A stretch of 5,562 nucleotides of DNA, taken from the IMG/VR virus record IMGVR_UViG_2585427777_000004, positions 1 through 5,562 of that record, one strand, 5' to 3'. The translations under genes were made by a program, and so were the position numbers. This document shows positions 1,434 through 5,501 of the stretch, piece by piece (the first letter of the stretch is position 1; each line of letters begins with the position of its first letter). This DNA comes from a virus (Duplodnaviria; Heunggongvirae; Uroviricota; Caudoviricetes). Below the pieces are notes generated by a model, which searched no databases, had not been told where the DNA came from, and was given only the letters and a program-made list of their open reading frames with translations.

Positions 1434-1615
1434 GTTGATGCTCTCCCGCCCCTGACAGACGCCAGGCCAGTCAATAAAGTATCCGCACAATGCCTACCCT
1501 CAGACGTGCGCGCAGGATAAATGCCGTTATGACCCGGCAAAATATATGCTACCCATTCATCTTGCGTTGCCTGTTCCGCCGCCTCGCGCAGTGCCTGATA
1601 GTCAATCTTGCTCAC
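1430..1615 (-). CDS. Short Ea22-like N-terminal-module protein (61 aa); possibly a truncated paralog
   Basis: ORF track 1430..1615 (-). GTG start at 1615..1613 preceded by AAAGGAGG, in a ~59-bp block about 85% identical by hand alignment to the start region of the 178-aa Ea22-like gene. N-terminus MSKIDYQALREAAEQATQDEW parallels MSEINYQALREVAERA. After about 30 residues the sequence loses similarity to the paralog. Confidence 0.4.
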   Translation of the reverse strand: MSKIDYQALREAAEQATQDEWVAYILPGHNGIYPARTSEGRHCADTLLTGLASVRGGRAST

Positions 1616-1631
1616 TGGCAGCCTCCTTTGC
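1573..1631. repeat. Copy B of the ~59-bp duplicated module (5' end and RBS of the 61-aa Ea22-like ORF)
   Basis: gttccgccgcctcgcgcagtgcctgatagtcaatcttgctcactggcagcctcctttgc; direct repeat of 888..946 in the same orientation. Confidence 0.6.
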
Positions 1632-1916
1632 CGGGATTTCTAACTTTTGAGTGGTTGTATCAAATTCAAACAACTTAACCACGTCATCAAACAGGACATA
1701 ATCACCATCAGGATTTTCAGTCATATCTGCGCCACAATCCTGACCGCACGAGTCGCAACCATCCATATCAAGCTCGTATCGCTTCAGGTTTGCGATATTT
1801 GATAAATTCAGCGCCAGTACAGCCAGGTCATAAACCTCTTCGGCAGTGACATCGCTGTTCAGTCCCATTTCATGGCGATATATGATTTTTTCTACTCGTT
1901 GTTTTGTGATCGTCAT
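1602..1916 (-). CDS. Acidic hypothetical protein (~104 aa; start uncertain, alternative ATG at 1868)
   Basis: ORF track 1602..1940 (-). Preferred start ATG 1916..1914 (MTITKQRVEK...) with GGAG about 11 nt upstream; an alternative ATG at 1868..1866 lies 1 nt after the stop of the upstream membrane-protein gene. C-terminal half is very acidic (DMDGCDSCGQDCGADMTENPDGDYVLFDDVVKLFEFD). Stop overlaps the next gene start by 14 nt. Confidence 0.45.
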   Translation of the reverse strand: MTITKQRVEKIIYRHEMGLNSDVTAEEVYDLAVLALNLSNIANLKRYELDMDGCDSCGQDCGADMTENPDGDYVLFDDVVKLFEFDTTTQKLEIPAKEAASEQD

Positions 1917-2187
1917 TTTTCTCTTCACTCCGATATACAAGGATTACTACCCCCCCTCTGCTGATTGCGCGAGCTGGATCCCCTGGTTCCATGCCGTCAA
2001 TTCCGAAGGCTTCGGAAAACGCATTCATTGCCTTCTGGCGTTCATCCTGCTTACGGCGTTTATTCCATTTTTTCAGGAACAACAGCGACAGCCACCGTCC
2101 GCTGCAGAACACGATGTAAAAATAACCAAGGAGCGCCAGGCCGACATTCAGGGCCGTTTCTATGGTTAGTTGTGAGTCAGTTGCCAT
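1870..2187 (-). CDS. Small predicted single-pass membrane protein (105 aa)
   Basis: ORF track 1870..2187 (-). ATG 2187..2185 overlaps the last 11 nt of the 279-aa gene (ATGGCAACTGA). Acidic N-terminus (MATDSQLTIET), a ~25-residue hydrophobic stretch (ALNVGLALLGYFYIVFCSGRWLSLLFL), then a basic cluster (KKWNKRRKQDERQK), consistent with positive-inside topology. The antisense plus-strand ORFs here look like shadow frames. Confidence 0.5.
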   Translation of the reverse strand: MATDSQLTIETALNVGLALLGYFYIVFCSGRWLSLLFLKKWNKRRKQDERQKAMNAFSEAFGIDGMEPGDPARAISRGGVVILVYRSEEKNDDHKTTSRKNHISP

Positions 2188-3016
2188 TTCTTACCTGTTT
2201 AAGTAACTGGTTGAACATAACACTTAGGGGATTGCTGTATCCAAACGGCAGATTGTTTACGCAGTACAGAATCATTTTGTTTTTTTCTCCAGTTCGTACT
2301 ATTAACCCATTCCACAATAACCGTGATAATTCATTACTGATAGAAGTTGCGCTTCTTCCAAGTGCGAGGGATATATCTTCTCTACTGCAATCTGGATTTT
2401 CCTGGATATACTCGATAACGGTCATGTGGTCCCTTTTACTTAATATCTGTTCGGATTGCATGCCATGAGCATTCATTTCGTTAATAATTTCATCCAGAAG
2501 GATTTCAAGCCCTTCTCGACCCATATCTGAAAGAATGAAACCTTTATCAGGGGAAGTAGTGAGCATTTTCTGATAAAGAAACAGCGCTCTTCCCATTCCT
2601 TCAGCTTCGCCGTATTTTTGAATTAAATTCCATTCAATATACTGTTGTAAGGCAAATCGAATGGGGCCGGGATATATCGTCATAAACCCATACATCCCGT
2701 TATATACCACGGCGTGTTCAGTTGTTCCGTGTTCATTCAGGATATCAATTGTGCCGTTCTTGTCTTCTTCTTCGTTGATGAATGTCGTCACATACAACCA
2801 TCGCCACTGAGCAACCTTCATCTCAACCGGAAGTTTACCCAGTAATCCTGCTTCGTCGGCTTGCGCCAGACACTGAAGGATACGTAAACCTCGCACATTA
2901 GGAGTATCGAATTCTCCGGCATCCAGACGACGTATGGCGTCGTGATAATCAATCGTCATACTGCCAGTTCGTATACCATTGGCTGTTGCTTCAGCCTGGA
3001 ATTCATCGTATTGCAT
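2177..3016 (-). CDS. 279-aa protein: unrecognised ~200-aa N-terminal domain plus C-terminal winged-helix DNA-binding domain
   Basis: ORF track 2177..3016 (-). ATG 3016..3014 with GAGGA 9 nt upstream; only 5 nt after the stop (TAA 3024..3022) of the 62-aa gene. C-terminal segment DCSREDISLALGRSATSISNELSRLLWNGLIVRTGEKNKMILY follows the helix-turn-helix-wing pattern of CRP/FNR-type C-terminal domains (compare CRP [40 protein letters not shown], recalled). No known motif recognised in the N-terminal 200 aa. Local GC is low (about 33-40% in sampled 60-nt lines). Confidence 0.65.
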   Translation of the reverse strand: MQYDEFQAEATANGIRTGSMTIDYHDAIRRLDAGEFDTPNVRGLRILQCLAQADEAGLLGKLPVEMKVAQWRWLYVTTFINEEEDKNGTIDILNEHGTTEHAVVYNGMYGFMTIYPGPIRFALQQYIEWNLIQKYGEAEGMGRALFLYQKMLTTSPDKGFILSDMGREGLEILLDEIINEMNAHGMQSEQILSKRDHMTVIEYIQENPDCSREDISLALGRSATSISNELSRLLWNGLIVRTGEKNKMILYCVNNLPFGYSNPLSVMFNQLLKQVRNGN

Positions 3017-3021
3017 GATAT

Positions 3022-3210
3022 TTATTCCTCATCTTCATCTTCATCTGCTGGTGCAATAACGTCATATCCTGCCTTTTCTGCAATAAACAGGAATGTTGAA
3101 AGAGTTCCTACAAGTTCATCGTCATGAACATGGCGAATGAATATTACTTTCCCGTTTTTGATGGTCAGCAATATTCTGGTTTGTTCGTGTTCTGCTGTTT
3201 TCTGATGCAT
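3022..3210 (-). CDS. Small acidic protein (62 aa) with poly-acidic C-terminal tail
   Basis: ORF track 3022..3210 (-). ATG 3210..3208 with GGGAGA SD 5 nt upstream. Sequence ends APADEDEDEE. Stop TAA 3024..3022 is followed 5 nt later by the 279-aa gene ATG. Confidence 0.5.
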   Translation of the reverse strand: MHQKTAEHEQTRILLTIKNGKVIFIRHVHDDELVGTLSTFLFIAEKAGYDVIAPADEDEDEE

Positions 3211-3212
3211 TA

Positions 3213-3326
3213 TTATCTCCCGTATGCTTTACGCAGAAATAAGCAGGCAATATGCATGTAATTTTCACCGTATTGTGCAATAAGGCAGGCGGTCTTGTGT
3301 GATGCCATATTCTTTATAAAAGTCAC
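3213..3326 (-). CDS. Candidate small leader ORF (37 aa), not in the supplied track
   Basis: Hand translation of the minus strand: GTG at 3326..3324 preceded by a perfect AGGAGG (3339..3334) with 7-nt spacing; frame reads (M)TFIKNMASHKTACLIAQYGENYMHIACLFLRKAYGR and stops at TAA 3215..3213, 2 nt before the ATG of the 62-aa gene. An internal ATG (3308..3306) would give 31 aa. Evidence is SD strength and tight coupling only. Confidence 0.25.
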   Translation of the reverse strand: MTFIKNMASHKTACLIAQYGENYMHIACLFLRKAYGR

Positions 3327-3404
3327 AATAAAGCCTCCTGTGGATTAAGGTTGTAACAATCCCCGGCGATAAAACCGCAATAAACGTTCAGGGCATATTT
3401 GTTG

Positions 3405-3770
3405 TTATTGCGCTAATTCTTTTTCGGCAGCAGCTTTTGTATACTCACATGCAAAACTCAGAATTTCGCTGCCGAGTGTTTTCGTTTCGTGATTACTGGA
3501 CATATGTAATACCTGTGTTGCATGCAATAAATGATAAACATTTACCGCAAATGAATCAGGCTCCAGACAAATGCCTTCGTAATTATCTTGCTGTGAGGTT
3601 GTTTCTGTCATTGCTCCTGAAGTGCATGCGAGCCTGTTTTTGACAATTCTCTTTTCTCTAATCACTATATCGGCAACATCTATTGCCTTTACAACCTCCG
3701 GGAGAAGTTCCGGGTTTGTATAATCAAAGTCATCAACATGGAGAACAGTTATGTTTTCGAACTTTTTCAT
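3405..3770 (-). CDS. Hypothetical protein (121 aa), acidic, no recognised domain
   Basis: ORF track 3405..3770 (-). ATG 3770..3768 preceded by GAGGAAGCC. Sequence MKKFENITVLHVDDFDYTNPELLPEVVKAIDVADIVIREK... has no motif I recognise. Flanked by non-coding gaps of about 128 bp upstream and 194 bp downstream. Confidence 0.55.
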   Translation of the reverse strand: MKKFENITVLHVDDFDYTNPELLPEVVKAIDVADIVIREKRIVKNRLACTSGAMTETTSQQDNYEGICLEPDSFAVNVYHLLHATQVLHMSSNHETKTLGSEILSFACEYTKAAAEKELAQ

Positions 3771-4402: not shown

Positions 4403-4445
4403 GAGATGATACCTCAGTTACGAACTTTGTTTTATGGTAACTAAG

Positions 4446-4485
4446 GTATCAAGGTGTGGCAAGTGATTTTTGATACTTTGGTTTC
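4446..4485. promoter_or_regulatory. OL-like operator: inverted repeat GGTATCAA-N16-TTGATACT carrying a copy of the TTGATACTTTGG motif
   Basis: ttgatactttgg at 4470..4481 is identical over 12 bp to 5209..5220 in the OR-like region. ggtatcaa at 4446..4453 is its inverted partner. Lies in the 103-bp gap between the repressor stop (4506) and the start of the 167-aa HTH gene (4402), the position expected for OL/PL. Confidence 0.45.
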
Positions 4486-4505: not shown

Positions 4506-5162
4506 TCAGAAAATATCCCATCTGGCATCAACCACAACACCTACTATTTCGCAATCATTGTCCATTTCTATGATTGGATATTGTGGATTAAGGGGCTTTA
4601 GAAACGCCTTTCCCATGTCAGAAATATATTTTTTGAATGTTGCTTCATTGGTGGATTTTTTTCTGGCGATGACGTAACACCCTGAAAAAACTTCTTTATC
4701 TGGGTTGACAAGGATCGACATTCCTTCAGGAAATGTTATTCCTACGGGCGAAGTCATTGAGTCTCCGTGCACTTCCAGCCAGAACCCCCTCTCACCAGCG
4801 TATTTTACAGAATGCCTCCAATTATCCTGATCATACATGTTGTAGTCATCACCAGAAGTTGCGAATAATCCTGCCTGAACCCAGTTAATTACAGGGTAAG
4901 AGTGTGCTGTGTCTCTCTGTGGGCAGCTCTTAACATTATTTTCCCAATGCTTATCTTTTTCATCTCCGTTCTGAAGCCACTGCGGTGAACACCGCAGTGC
5001 AGCTGCAACTTTAAAAAGGGTGTCACCGTTGAAACTTTTTGTAAGGCCTTGCTCGGCTTTACTTATTGCAACTCTGGTGACCCCAGCTTTTTTAGCCAAC
5101 GCATCTTGTGTTAACCCAGCTTTTTGCCGTGCGTTGATGAGACGTTCACCTAAAGACTTCAT
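4506..5162 (-). CDS. cI: Phage CI/C2-family repressor (218 aa): N-terminal HTH plus C-terminal LexA-like S24 autopeptidase domain
   Basis: ORF track 4506..5237 (-), trimmed to ATG 5162..5160 (MKSLGERLINARQKAGLTQDALAKKAGVTRVAISKAEQG...) which has a strong SD AGAGGAG about 7 nt upstream. By recall the sequence is collinear with P22 C2: HTH GLTQDALAKKAGVTRVAIS, probable Ala-Gly cleavage site in NWVQAGLF, catalytic Ser in HGDSMTSP, catalytic Lys in ATFKK, and a C-terminal block ATFKKYISDMGKAFLKPLNPQYPIIEMDNDCEIVGVVVDAR versus P22 ATFKKLVMDAGRKFLKPLNPQYPMIEINGNCKIIGVVVDAK. Confidence 0.9.
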   Translation of the reverse strand: MKSLGERLINARQKAGLTQDALAKKAGVTRVAISKAEQGLTKSFNGDTLFKVAAALRCSPQWLQNGDEKDKHWENNVKSCPQRDTAHSYPVINWVQAGLFATSGDDYNMYDQDNWRHSVKYAGERGFWLEVHGDSMTSPVGITFPEGMSILVNPDKEVFSGCYVIARKKSTNEATFKKYISDMGKAFLKPLNPQYPIIEMDNDCEIVGVVVDARWDIF

Positions 5163-5273
5163 TTTTCTTCTCCTCTCATGGCTGTTGATACTAAAGTAAC
5201 AGAATTTCTTGATACTTTGGGTTCCTGTGGTTAACATCGTTGGATAACAAAGTATCTGGTGTGAGACTAAAGA
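5163..5273. promoter_or_regulatory. Divergent immunity control region (OR / PRM / PR analogue) with three TTGATAC-type operator-like sites
   Basis: Intergenic region between the repressor start (5162) and the first plus-strand ORF (5274). Sites ttgatactaaagta (5185..5198), ttgatactttgggt (5209..5222) and an inverted partial site ggataacaaagtatc (5242..5256, GATA-N6-TATC). Possible rightward promoter: -35 TTGATA (5209..5214), 17-bp spacer, -10 TAACAT (5232..5237). Promoter calls are by eye. Confidence 0.5.
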
Positions 5274-5501
5274 ATGACCCTTTATGAAATATTAAAAATT
5301 CAATTTAAAACCAATGCCGCTATTGGTCGCAGGTTCCCAAAGAAAGGAAGGCCTCGTGGCAGTCAAGGTGTTGGAAAGTGGAAAACGCGAGGTGTTCCGG
5401 AGGATGTTGCCATTCTTTGTCATCTGGATCCGAGCATTCCATATACACACCCAAGTCTAGCGAATACAGAAGATGACAAGCCCACAGGAGACCAACAATG
5501 A
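5274..5501 (+). CDS. Hypothetical small basic protein (75 aa); weakly supported
   Basis: ORF track 5274..5501 (+). First ORF on the rightward side of the immunity region. Basic stretch AIGRRFPKKGRPRGSQGVGKWKTRG. Stop TGA overlaps the ATG of the next gene (ATGA at 5498..5501). No strong SD and no HTH pattern, so it may be an untranslated leader. Confidence 0.3.
   Translation: MTLYEILKIQFKTNAAIGRRFPKKGRPRGSQGVGKWKTRGVPEDVAILCHLDPSIPYTHPSLANTEDDKPTGDQQ

Follow-up and report, generated by a model that had tools for sequence, protein, structure and literature searches.

The minus strand of the window, i.e. the whole stretch of 5,562 nt that was analysed, carries an open reading frame for 105 amino acids at 1870..2187 (stop codon included). 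Its product was originally predicted to be a single-pass membrane protein and, together with the 279-aa winged-helix (wHTH) protein encoded upstream, the effector of an exclusion or abortive-infection system. The locus raises the question whether this frame is a gene, whether its product is membrane-anchored and whether the two neighbors form a functional unit.

Reading frame and family of the 105-aa gene

The frame exists, as the ORF listing and the translation confirm, and it starts with ATG; this ATG at 2187 is the first start codon 3' of an in-frame stop two codons upstream. The length of the frame alone is not significant because equally long ORFs, 1846-2169 (+) and 1965-2468 (+), are found on the opposite strand. 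The product matches the Pfam family DUF4752 (PF15944) with E 7.2e-37 over aa 8-90 (profile positions 2-84 of 84), its 125.8 bits being above the gathering cut-off of 27 bits across the whole domain, and phrog_667 with E 3e-40 (136.9 bits, 1-93 of 94). In comparison with 11 diverged relatives, substitutions in the DUF4752 frame are mainly at codon position 3 and pN/pS is 0.17-0.45. The other frames gave pN/pS of ~1 or more, except for the antisense frame sharing third positions, which has 2-3 stops in each of the 11 relatives. These patterns indicate that purifying selection acts on the 105-aa frame and that the antisense ORFs are not conserved; judged by them and by the family matches, the 105-aa ORF is a genuine gene. 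Long ORFs are certainly present on the plus strand, but the chance that one of them (1846-2169 or 1965-2468) is the gene, or that the region is non-coding, is negligible: the plus-strand frames opposite the DUF4752 gene contain 1-4 stops in relatives, only the minus-strand frame is both open and has pN/pS below 0.5, the Pfam and PHROG matches belong to the minus-strand product, and the entire operon is situated on the minus strand. The choice of the minus strand as coding, which the original prediction had made, is thus upheld.

The gene is also already known. The exact 105-aa protein is present on at least 1000 public contigs, where it is named “DUF4752 family protein”, which makes it, by its sequence, a catalogued member of an uncharacterised phage family. 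This family is narrow (61 clusters at 50% identity among 1.84 billion representatives), and the source-given names of its members are all from Enterobacterales; judging from these members, it is restricted to temperate phages and prophages of that order. Relatives occur in VT2-Sakai, ST64T, D6 and mEp043 and in prophages of Klebsiella, Serratia and Edwardsiella, and the family is widely distributed among the prophages of E. coli, Salmonella and Klebsiella. An identical DUF4752 copy is carried by the inducible phage PhiR49_2 of ECOR13. One family member, P0232, was not located on contigs. A full-text search of a literature library found no publication mentioning the DUF4752 family, and a broader search for small lambdoid-prophage membrane proteins, as well as the epsilon34 genome paper, yielded nothing on it.

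The allele in the window has an N-terminal half that matches one sub-lineage (P0019) and a C-terminal half that matches another, which, on sequence grounds, indicates intragenic mosaicism. Its length is atypical, since most family members have 84-96 aa, and it is 105 aa long because its frame continues for 47 nt within the gene that follows. This overlap (1870..1916, minus strand) encodes the unconserved tail aa 91-105, which is outside the Pfam domain, is absent from most family members, has pLDDT below 50 and co-occurs with a downstream gene of the phrog_3126 type. The downstream gene itself, 104 aa long (1602..1916, minus strand), was assigned to phrog_3126, a group with no assigned function, by its PHROG match and by annotation; in NC_017656 it is annotated from the ATG at 1916.

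A putative membrane anchor and a conserved C-terminal module

All features that had been read from the translation, an acidic N-tail, one hydrophobic segment and a basic run KKWNKRRKQDERQK, are present. The anchor was assessed with the Kyte-Doolittle scale and the summed Hessa scale in 19-residue windows, with soluble and membrane proteins as controls. The best 19-residue window of the 105-aa protein, aa 11-29 or 12-30, has a Kyte-Doolittle value of 1.67, and the Hessa sum for the same window is +2.3 kcal/mol (+2.28). Ten soluble proteins encoded in the analysed stretch gave +6.7 to +14.1, and the membrane controls gave 0.0 (lambda RexB), +4.4 (the lambda ORF annotated SieB) and +5.9 (YdfD). 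The core segment aa 11-29 (TALNVGLALLGYFYIVFCS; 2101..2157, minus strand) is moderately hydrophobic and clearly apart from these soluble proteins, and together with the evidence of relatives and AlphaFold2 this makes it a putative membrane anchor. It is part of a wider hydrophobic or amphipathic stretch (aa 7-38; 2074-2169, minus strand), is preceded by the N-tail MATDSQLTIET with net charge -2, and is followed by a basic juxtamembrane stretch, aa 39-52 (2032..2073, minus strand), recognised by its charge and conservation, with net charge +6 over aa 39-54. In relatives down to ~22% identity the hydrophobic segment and the charge asymmetry recur, and the neutral or acidic N-tail, the basic stretch and the C-terminal motif are also kept. 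K39, W41, K43, R45, K46 and Q47 are nearly invariant in close relatives; distant members carry +1 to +7 charge after the hydrophobic segment. Hydrophobicity itself varies, a Kyte-Doolittle value of 1.6 being reached by only 25 of 45 sampled relatives, with a family Hessa range of 0.15 to 5.1.

AlphaFold2 predicts aa 5-61 as a single long helix with pLDDT of ~90 over aa 11-40, and strands at 72-77 and 80-85 with low pLDDT (54-59); the long helix and the weak hairpin appeared in both of two runs, based on alignments of 32 and 46 sequences, at pTM 0.28-0.29. The conserved C-terminal module, aa 53-90 (1918..2031, minus strand), delimited by the family consensus and AlphaFold2 and putatively cytoplasmic, comprises the end of the long helix (AMNAFSEAF) and then a beta-hairpin ARAISRGGVVILVYR; its family consensus is QKA.N.FYDAF.L..IEPG....h.TKGDL.I.hYR. 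In a few clusters this module is found behind other N-termini, which in five family clusters are non-hydrophobic. A Foldseek search of the model against BFVD gave no match at E <=0.001 (the best, E 0.16, was on a 40-residue helix), and searching PDB sequences with a profile yielded nothing better than E 0.4. The model is not globular enough for fold searches to be informative, and with its low confidence and the lack of a structural match no target of the module suggests itself. Two leads were disregarded: a sub-threshold Pfam match to HemY_N (E 0.005, 17 bits against a cut-off of 31), which covers the hydrophobic helix only, and the 1194-aa protein P0160, whose 13 repeats match profile positions 57-89, a hairpin-level similarity inflated by repetition.

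The originally proposed positive-inside topology is plausible in the light of the hydrophobic segment, the charge asymmetry and the AlphaFold2 helix, and it is kept across the family. We infer one membrane anchor with an N-out/C-in layout. The protein might, however, not be integral to the membrane at all: its N-terminal helix would then either form the core of a coiled-coil oligomer in solution or serve as an amphipathic anchor of the peripheral kind. The only moderate hydrophobicity, the conservation of a charged residue (K/R, here R31) and of W32 within the wider hydrophobic stretch, and the occurrence of the C-terminal module behind non-hydrophobic N-termini speak in this direction. Yet in hydrophobicity the segment far exceeds every soluble protein of the analysed stretch, its Hessa value falls between that of RexB and those of SieB and YdfD, family members consistently show the charge asymmetry across it, and the variant N-termini resemble products of recombination or frameshift. 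A non-integral protein is therefore quite improbable, and a single anchor is the reading that we follow below.

Changing neighbors and position in the operon

The upstream ORF of 279 aa (2177..3016, minus strand), which ends in TGA at 2177-2179, is itself atypical. Residues 1-192 of its product match phrog_1515 (E 9.6e-90) and residues 194-277 match phrog_1687 (E 1.3e-23). These correspond to two genes: a 193-aa gene with no assigned function (2436..3016, minus strand), whose usual stop, here a latent TAA at 2436-2438, is bypassed, and an 82-aa MarR-like winged-helix gene (2177..2425, minus strand), the true immediate upstream gene, here fused to it in frame. Pfam MarR_2 and HTH_24 match the 82-aa portion below their cut-offs, and the 82-aa gene is annotated as MarR family in Stx1 phages. 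In 38 related loci the 193-aa gene, a stop, a Shine-Dalgarno sequence (AAGGGA) and a separate 82-aa MarR-like gene follow each other, and the 193-aa CDS is present in NC_017656, PhiR49_2 and Stx1 phages. The 279-aa ORF arises because a single base is missing at 2450-2451, where TT stands in place of the TTT of relatives (coding strand CCGAACAG vs CCGAAACAG). The fused product was present on 4 contigs against at least 1000 for the 193-aa form, and it was found only in the source assembly (two contigs) and one Logan run. By this comparison the 279-aa ORF is a rare one-base frameshift fusion of the 193-aa and 82-aa genes, and the idea of a 279-aa wHTH gene as the partner unit falls with it.

The 11-nt overlap ATGGCAACTGA (2177..2187, minus strand), which contains the DUF4752 start and the upstream TGA within DUF4752 codons 3-4, was confirmed from the coordinates and the coding-strand letters. 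The same 11-nt overlap, with its +8 stop position, is also found with an unrelated DUF4406-like upstream gene, and DksA-like upstream genes have a 4-nt (A/G)TGA overlap with the DUF4752 gene. Of the proposed co-translation with the 279-aa protein, the overlap stands and fits translational coupling, but the pairing with that protein does not. Across 80 IMG/VR loci with DUF4752 proteins of 76-100% identity, the upstream position was occupied by a wHTH gene ~41-46 times, by a DksA-like zinc finger ~20 times and by a DUF4406-like gene ~15 times; the DksA-like and DUF4406-like neighbors belong to relatives of 82-86% identity, and DUF551 is also among the upstream genes. In more distant members the gene follows replication genes in a nin region or stands between other genes, so that the contexts of the family include ea regions, nin regions and P1-like phages. 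Conversely, in P88-like phages the gene after the wHTH homologue is an Ead/Ea22 gene and not DUF4752. Precisely where the upstream gene meets DUF4752, the G+C content jumps from 0.39 to 0.48, and in an IS-deletion variant DUF4752 is retained and the upstream block is gone. The DUF4752 gene is, as far as these genomes tell, an independent mosaic cassette, and the wHTH gene is one of its neighbors, not a dedicated partner. On the other hand, the wHTH-DUF4752 adjacency persists across DUF4752 variants of 100, 92, 83 and 76% identity, and a lineage-specific cooperation of the two may exist.

The DUF4752 gene overlaps both its neighbors. It is located in the middle of the leftward operon that adjoins cI, and the likely pL is ~2.2 kb upstream of it. 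The candidate pL promoter (4434..4481, minus strand) was recognised from a promoter-like TTGCCA-17-TACCAT at 4462..4434 (-) and from operator-like sites, TGATACTTTGG-like sequences being found only in the two intergenic regions flanking cI. A promoter scan of the window found no promoter-like site near the DUF4752 start. A 10/12 promoter-like site is present at 3611..3582 (-), inside a 121-aa gene, and could drive lysogenic expression. Promoter-like and terminator-like sites occur in the window at chance frequency. Two terminator-like matches within the DUF4752 ORF (2105..2087) have no proper T-run and were rejected, and Rfam showed no RNA family in the window. The layout suggests that the gene would be expressed from pL only.

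These observations bear on the originally proposed two-gene exclusion or abortive-infection system, in which DUF4752 would be the effector and the wHTH protein a sensor or regulator, phage attack leading to depolarisation or arrest. The tight overlap with the upstream gene, the adjacency kept over variants of decreasing identity, and the low G+C of the upstream block, as in many accessory islands, would suit such a system, as would weak PADLOC matches of the wHTH protein to the wHTH portions of CARF/CasR/Csa3 (E 4e-5 to 5e-2). These matches, however, span only the generic DNA-binding domain, and for the 105-aa protein PADLOC-DB 2.0 gave 0 families at E <=0.1. NCBIfam gave no match for it, Pfam no match to RexB, SieB or a holin, and neither PHROG nor NCBIfam a holin family. 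Besides, the supposed partner is a rare frameshift fusion, relatives carry DksA-like, DUF4406-like, replication or other genes upstream, wHTH homologues occur without DUF4752, and the gene, situated midway along the pL operon, lacks its own promoter-like site. The role of DUF4752 as the effector of such a pair has to be abandoned as the leading explanation, and we consider it improbable.

Only a little less improbable is a superinfection-exclusion or lysogenic-conversion protein that works alone, i.e. is made in the lysogen and from the membrane blocks DNA entry or the development of incoming phages. DUF4752 is a small, presumably membrane-anchored prophage protein, it is under purifying selection and common in prophages, and the site at 3611..3582 (-) could permit pL-independent transcription. 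But with ~10 periplasmic residues and the conserved module in the cytoplasm it would be poorly suited to blocking injection from outside, and Pfam and PADLOC revealed no similarity to known Sie or Imm families. Moreover, other phages carry the gene in delayed-early nin regions downstream of replication genes, and in lambda biology such regions are not expressed in lysogens.

Possible function and comparison with known systems

From all these results, the explanation that we regard as somewhat better than an even choice is that DUF4752 is a stand-alone accessory protein of early operons which tethers a cytoplasmic helix-hairpin domain to the inner membrane. The product would be a bitopic inner-membrane protein with ~10 N-terminal residues in the periplasm, whose anchor helix (~aa 11-29) continues into the basic juxtamembrane helix, so that the helix-plus-hairpin module (aa 53-90) would be kept close to the membrane on its cytoplasmic side. 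The cassette, residing in early operons (pL ‘ea’ or pR ‘nin’), would be transcribed with its operon after induction or infection, and its translation would probably be coupled by the stop/start overlap to whichever gene recombination had put upstream. During early lytic development the tethered module, possibly as a homo-oligomer, may bind or sequester a host (or phage) factor at the inner membrane, resulting in a non-essential accessory or host-modulating function. More speculatively, and with a chance that we consider small, DUF4752 would represent an unstudied class of early proteins that tether a module of ~40 residues to capture a host factor (for example a protease or a component of division or transport), or else a stand-alone exclusion or growth-arrest factor. 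If true, this would give a function to a gene that a considerable proportion of the prophages of E. coli, Salmonella and Klebsiella carry, Stx phages among them. The family is functionally blank, yet common in clinically relevant prophages (Stx1 and Stx2 phages, an ST131 genome according to a source-given protein name, and P22-like Salmonella phages), and its conserved, putatively membrane-tethered architecture is a concrete starting point for tests. The corrective outcome is also of use: the membrane effector and the 279-aa wHTH sensor are not a unit, and the cassette recombines freely next to unrelated genes.

The known representatives of DUF4752/phrog_667, for example VT2-Sakai orf78 (NP_050577), ST64T gp30 (NP_720304), ST104 ORF7 and mEp043 gp31, share with the protein described here the N-terminal hydrophobic helix, the basic stretch, the C-terminal AFxDAF...PG...KGDLxIxxYR module and the setting in early operons of lambdoid phages; the allele differs from most of them in its 105 aa as opposed to 84-96 aa. 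Outside the family, hhalign of DUF4752 against RexB, SieB and YdfD gave probabilities that were all below 1%. RexB and SieB, which are expressed in lysogens, are prophage-encoded membrane proteins near the immunity region, as DUF4752 would be. Lambda RexB (hhalign probability 0.1% or less, no Pfam or PADLOC match at E <=0.1) is a multi-pass protein, made in the lysogen from pRM/pLIT, and works with a cytoplasmic partner, RexA. DUF4752, by contrast, has one segment, is located mid-operon downstream of pL and is not accompanied by a conserved partner gene. For the lambda ORF annotated SieB (NC_001416) the hhalign probability was 0.07%, with no Pfam match. Lambda CIII, an inhibitor of FtsH, is a small early protein of the pL operon acting through a helix at the cytoplasmic face of the inner membrane. 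Its hhalign probability is 0.08% and its Hessa value, +11.7, shows no hydrophobic anchor, so this functional analogy is offered only as a lead.

DUF4752 belongs to the early-left operon and not to a late lysis cassette next to an endolysin, as would be expected of a holin or pinholin. A toxic early protein of another kind, viroporin-like, holin-like or similar to Kil or YdfD, whose helix would oligomerise and damage the membrane or block an essential membrane-linked step, is unlikely, though the least so of the rivals considered here. The anchor helix has conserved small or polar residues (N14, G16, G21) typical of helix-helix packing and forms one long helix with an amphipathic basic continuation; however, N14 is not conserved in distant members, Pfam shows no holin match, a simple pore would have no need of the conserved cytoplasmic module, and the gene is kept intact in thousands of prophages, even if repression would permit that. 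The tethered accessory protein remains our preferred reading also beside YdfD of the Qin prophage (E. coli K-12 b1576), the single-TM lysis protein that serves as an analogy for toxicity: its hhalign probability is 0.4%, it has 63 aa against 105 aa, and its C-terminal part is different. In layout YdfD is nevertheless the closest analogue of DUF4752: it is small, it has one N-terminal hydrophobic segment, and its gene overlaps by 4 nt the end of another small gene, dicB, within an early lambdoid-prophage operon that is repressed.

The DUF4752 gene and the architecture of its product

The 105-aa open reading frame (ORF) at 1870-2187 on the minus strand is present as originally predicted: it starts at the first ATG past an in-frame stop, and its overlap with the upstream ORF, including that ORF's TGA, reads ATGGCAACTGA. 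Its length alone is uninformative, since the opposite strand also holds long ORFs of 107 and 167 aa. The product matches Pfam DUF4752 (E 7e-37) and phrog_667 (E 3e-40). In comparison with eleven diverged relatives, pN/pS in this frame is 0.17-0.45 with changes biased to the third position, and in relatives stops interrupt the antisense frames. Taken together, homology and selection establish the ORF as a gene, and the chance that the wrong strand was read, or that the region is non-coding, is negligible. Its identity is well supported: the protein is an already catalogued DUF member, with identical copies annotated in many genomes.

Both the predicted acidic N-tail (net charge -2) and the basic run KKWNKRRKQDERQK are found in the product. 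The most hydrophobic 19-residue segment (aa 11-29 / 12-30) has a Kyte-Doolittle value of 1.67. Its Hessa sum is +2.3 kcal/mol, against +6.7 to +14.1 for the window's soluble proteins and 0.0, +4.4 and +5.9 for the controls lambda RexB, the ORF annotated SieB and YdfD, respectively. The hydrophobicity of this segment is only moderate, and a non-integral protein or a soluble oligomer is an alternative that we regard as improbable. Members as distant as approximately 22% identity share one plan: after a short N-tail, neutral or acidic, come a hydrophobic helix (h-GL-hh-IGY-L-Y-I), K/R-S/T-x-x-W together with a brief amphipathic stretch, a run rich in K/R and finally QKA-x-N-x-F-Y-D-A-F-x-L...PG...T-K-G-D-L-x-I-x-x-Y-R. 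AlphaFold2, with two alignments, predicts a single helix at aa 5-61 (pLDDT ~90 at aa 11-40) and, with low confidence, a beta-hairpin at aa 72-85; past aa 90 the tail is predicted to be disordered. No fold or PDB relatives were found. Family plan and predicted helix support a putative single N-out/C-in anchor with the conserved module in the cytoplasm, and membrane insertion is probable.

The family is small: among 1.84 billion representatives, profile searches, both word-seeded and exhaustive, recovered 61 clusters (50% identity). Every member with a name is from Enterobacterales (Escherichia, Shigella, Salmonella, Klebsiella, Serratia, Enterobacter, Edwardsiella, Rosenbergiella, and phages of Erwinia and Hafnia). 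Several proteins from the profile searches (P0064, P0173, P0175, P0153 and P0190) are chimeric, some without the hydrophobic helix; they combine PF14359 (DUF4406-like) ahead of DUF4752, the DUF4752 anchor with a PF14359-like C-terminus, or an Ead/Ea22-like N-terminus with the DUF4752 C-module, which suggests frequent frameshift or recombination at overlapping gene junctions. Another protein, P0160 (1194 aa), consists of 13 near-identical ~87-aa repeats, each matching DUF4752 profile positions 57-89 (…SRQIVNGNLYTIVYRNPEG…); its whole-protein match (E 2.8e-14) probably reflects a resemblance at the level of the hairpin, which the repeats magnify. No mention of the family was found in the searchable full-text library.

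The upstream reading frame and the mosaic of neighbors

The original prediction took the overlap to imply co-translation of the membrane protein with a 279-aa winged-helix (wHTH) protein. PHROG divides this 279-aa ORF into phrog_1515 (aa 1-192) and the MarR-like phrog_1687 (aa 194-277). Against 38 related loci, a one-base deletion lies at 2436-2451 on the minus strand, within the ORF at 2177-3016: these loci have CCGAAACAG (TTT) at a T-run where the window has TT (2450-2451; coding strand CCGAACAG). There a 193-aa protein ends in ...MQSETDIK and a stop; the Shine-Dalgarno sequence AAGGGA and the ATG start of a separate wHTH gene (82 aa) follow, and in Stx1 phages the two genes are annotated separately. 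The 193-aa form is present in at least 1000 contigs, the fused product only in two contigs of the window's assembly and one independent Logan run. The 279-aa "wHTH gene" is thus a fusion artefact of this allele, the deletion being either a rare real allele or a homopolymer error.

The upstream gene itself varies. Among 80 IMG/VR loci with DUF4752 proteins 76-100% identical to the window's, it is the wHTH gene in ~41-46; another ~20 have a gene for a DksA-like zinc finger of 73 aa there, and ~15 a DUF4406-like gene. The 11-nt overlap, common to the wHTH and DUF4406-like genes, arises because their stop TGA falls in DUF4752 codons 3-4 (xxT GAx), and DksA-like genes overlap by 4 nt, (A/G)TGA. The downstream gene changes independently of the upstream one. 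More distant members lie in nin regions of ST64T, Klebsiella and Edwardsiella after DnaB or P replication genes, in Serratia between a phiTE_015-like and an MT-A70 methylase gene, in the P1-like phage D6, and among other ea genes in mEp043. Conversely, in P88-like P2-type phages an Ead/Ea22 gene follows the wHTH homologues; in P88 itself (2001-2757 of the compared locus L102) a 45%-identical wHTH gene and an Ead/Ea22-like gene precede a 67-aa gene annotated 'membrane protein', and P88 is absent among the DUF4752 tblastn matches listed.

Exactly at the junction, G+C content rises from 0.39 in the wHTH gene to 0.48 in DUF4752, and at two IMG/VR loci (L048 and L049) an IS3-family element takes the place of the whole upstream block with DUF4752 intact. 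Variable neighbors, wHTH genes without DUF4752, the G+C step and the IS loci together indicate that the overlap reflects the tight packing, and probably the coupled translation, that are usual in the early operons of lambdoid phages, and a system of DUF4752 protein and wHTH, with the overlap in its favor, is highly unlikely. The independence of the DUF4752 cassette from its neighbors is well supported.

The 3' end tells of the same mosaic pattern. Most members are 84-96 aa long and end near ...YRSEEKNERD; the window's allele has 15 further unconserved residues, predicted disordered, which cross the next gene's start (ATG at 1916), overlap it by 47 nt and go together with that downstream phrog_3126 gene.

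Some further observations concern this region. The block of 121-aa, 62-aa, 193-aa and wHTH genes (2177-3770) has a G+C content of 0.39-0.43, versus 0.48-0.54 in the DUF4752 and Ead/Ea22 genes, and seems to be an accessory module that was acquired separately; the strongest promoter-like site of the window (10/12; 3611..3582, minus strand) lies inside it. The IS3-family element of L048 (1724-2928) has 112-aa OrfA-like and 279-aa transposase ORFs and is flanked by a truncated HTH gene (167 aa) and DUF4752, which in L048/L049 carries one substitution, G30R.

Genomic setting

The window corresponds to contig JOST01000012.1 of E. coli 5-366-08_S4_C1 and spans a lambdoid prophage's immunity and early-left region. 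A gene for a CI-like repressor (HTH_3 and Peptidase_S24 domain matches; 4506-5237, minus strand) is divergent from a cro-like gene (5274-5501, plus strand), and the leftward string on the minus strand encodes, in order, 167-aa XRE-HTH, 121-aa, 62-aa, 279-aa, 105-aa and 104-aa products and three Ead/Ea22-like ORFs. Complete E. coli genomes with nearly identical DNA number 101; in O55:H7 RM12579 the prophage is integrated beside mlrA. PhiR49_2, an inducible phage from ECOR13, carries this DNA as well. Five TGATACTTTGG-like sites, two of them exact, form inverted pairs confined to the two intergenic regions either side of the cI-like gene (4434-4481 and 5191-5257), and probably serve as oL/pL and oR/pR operators in this immunity type; the overlapping promoter-like site at 4462..4434 (minus strand) is the likely pL. 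From the first ATG the cI-like ORF encodes 243 aa; the 218-aa start of public gene calls (MKSLGERL…) is more plausible, since operator-like sites (5191-5220) lie inside the longer version.

The three Ead/Ea22-like ORFs (61, 187/168 and 178 aa) lie in a row at 394-1615 on the minus strand. Those of 61 and 178 aa have near-identical N-termini (MSKIDYQALREAAEQA and MSEINYQALREVAERA, respectively), and the shorter of the two appears to be an N-terminal remnant of recombination between paralogues. In other phages, too, DUF4752 genes often have Ead/Ea22 genes nearby.

Possible role and comparison with known systems

We consider it fairly probable that DUF4752 is a stand-alone accessory gene of the early operon, whose product, possibly an oligomer, would tether a small helix-hairpin module to the cytoplasmic side of the inner membrane and would act there on some host or phage factor; the molecular role itself is guesswork. 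A very common, uncharacterised prophage gene family now has a testable architecture. Of the original interpretation the topology is supported as probable, and the partnership and the defence role are not supported. The protein matched no PADLOC or NCBIfam model, and in Pfam no family besides DUF4752, save a sub-threshold HemY_N match of the helix. Against lambda RexB and CIII, the ORF annotated SieB and YdfD, the lysis protein of Qin, profile comparison gave negative results throughout (probabilities <1%). A membrane-perturbing or toxic early protein is unlikely, and an exclusion function of the single gene quite unlikely. RexB and SieB are active in lysogens. The DUF4752 gene has no promoter-like site of its own and follows the putative pL at a distance of ~2.2 kb. 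Judged by layout, this mid-operon position and the delayed-early nin position elsewhere suggest that the gene would be expressed as the phage develops lytically, not in the lysogen. YdfD, although not related, comes nearest in layout: it has a single N-terminal hydrophobic segment, and its gene, in a repressed early operon, briefly overlaps the small gene upstream of it.
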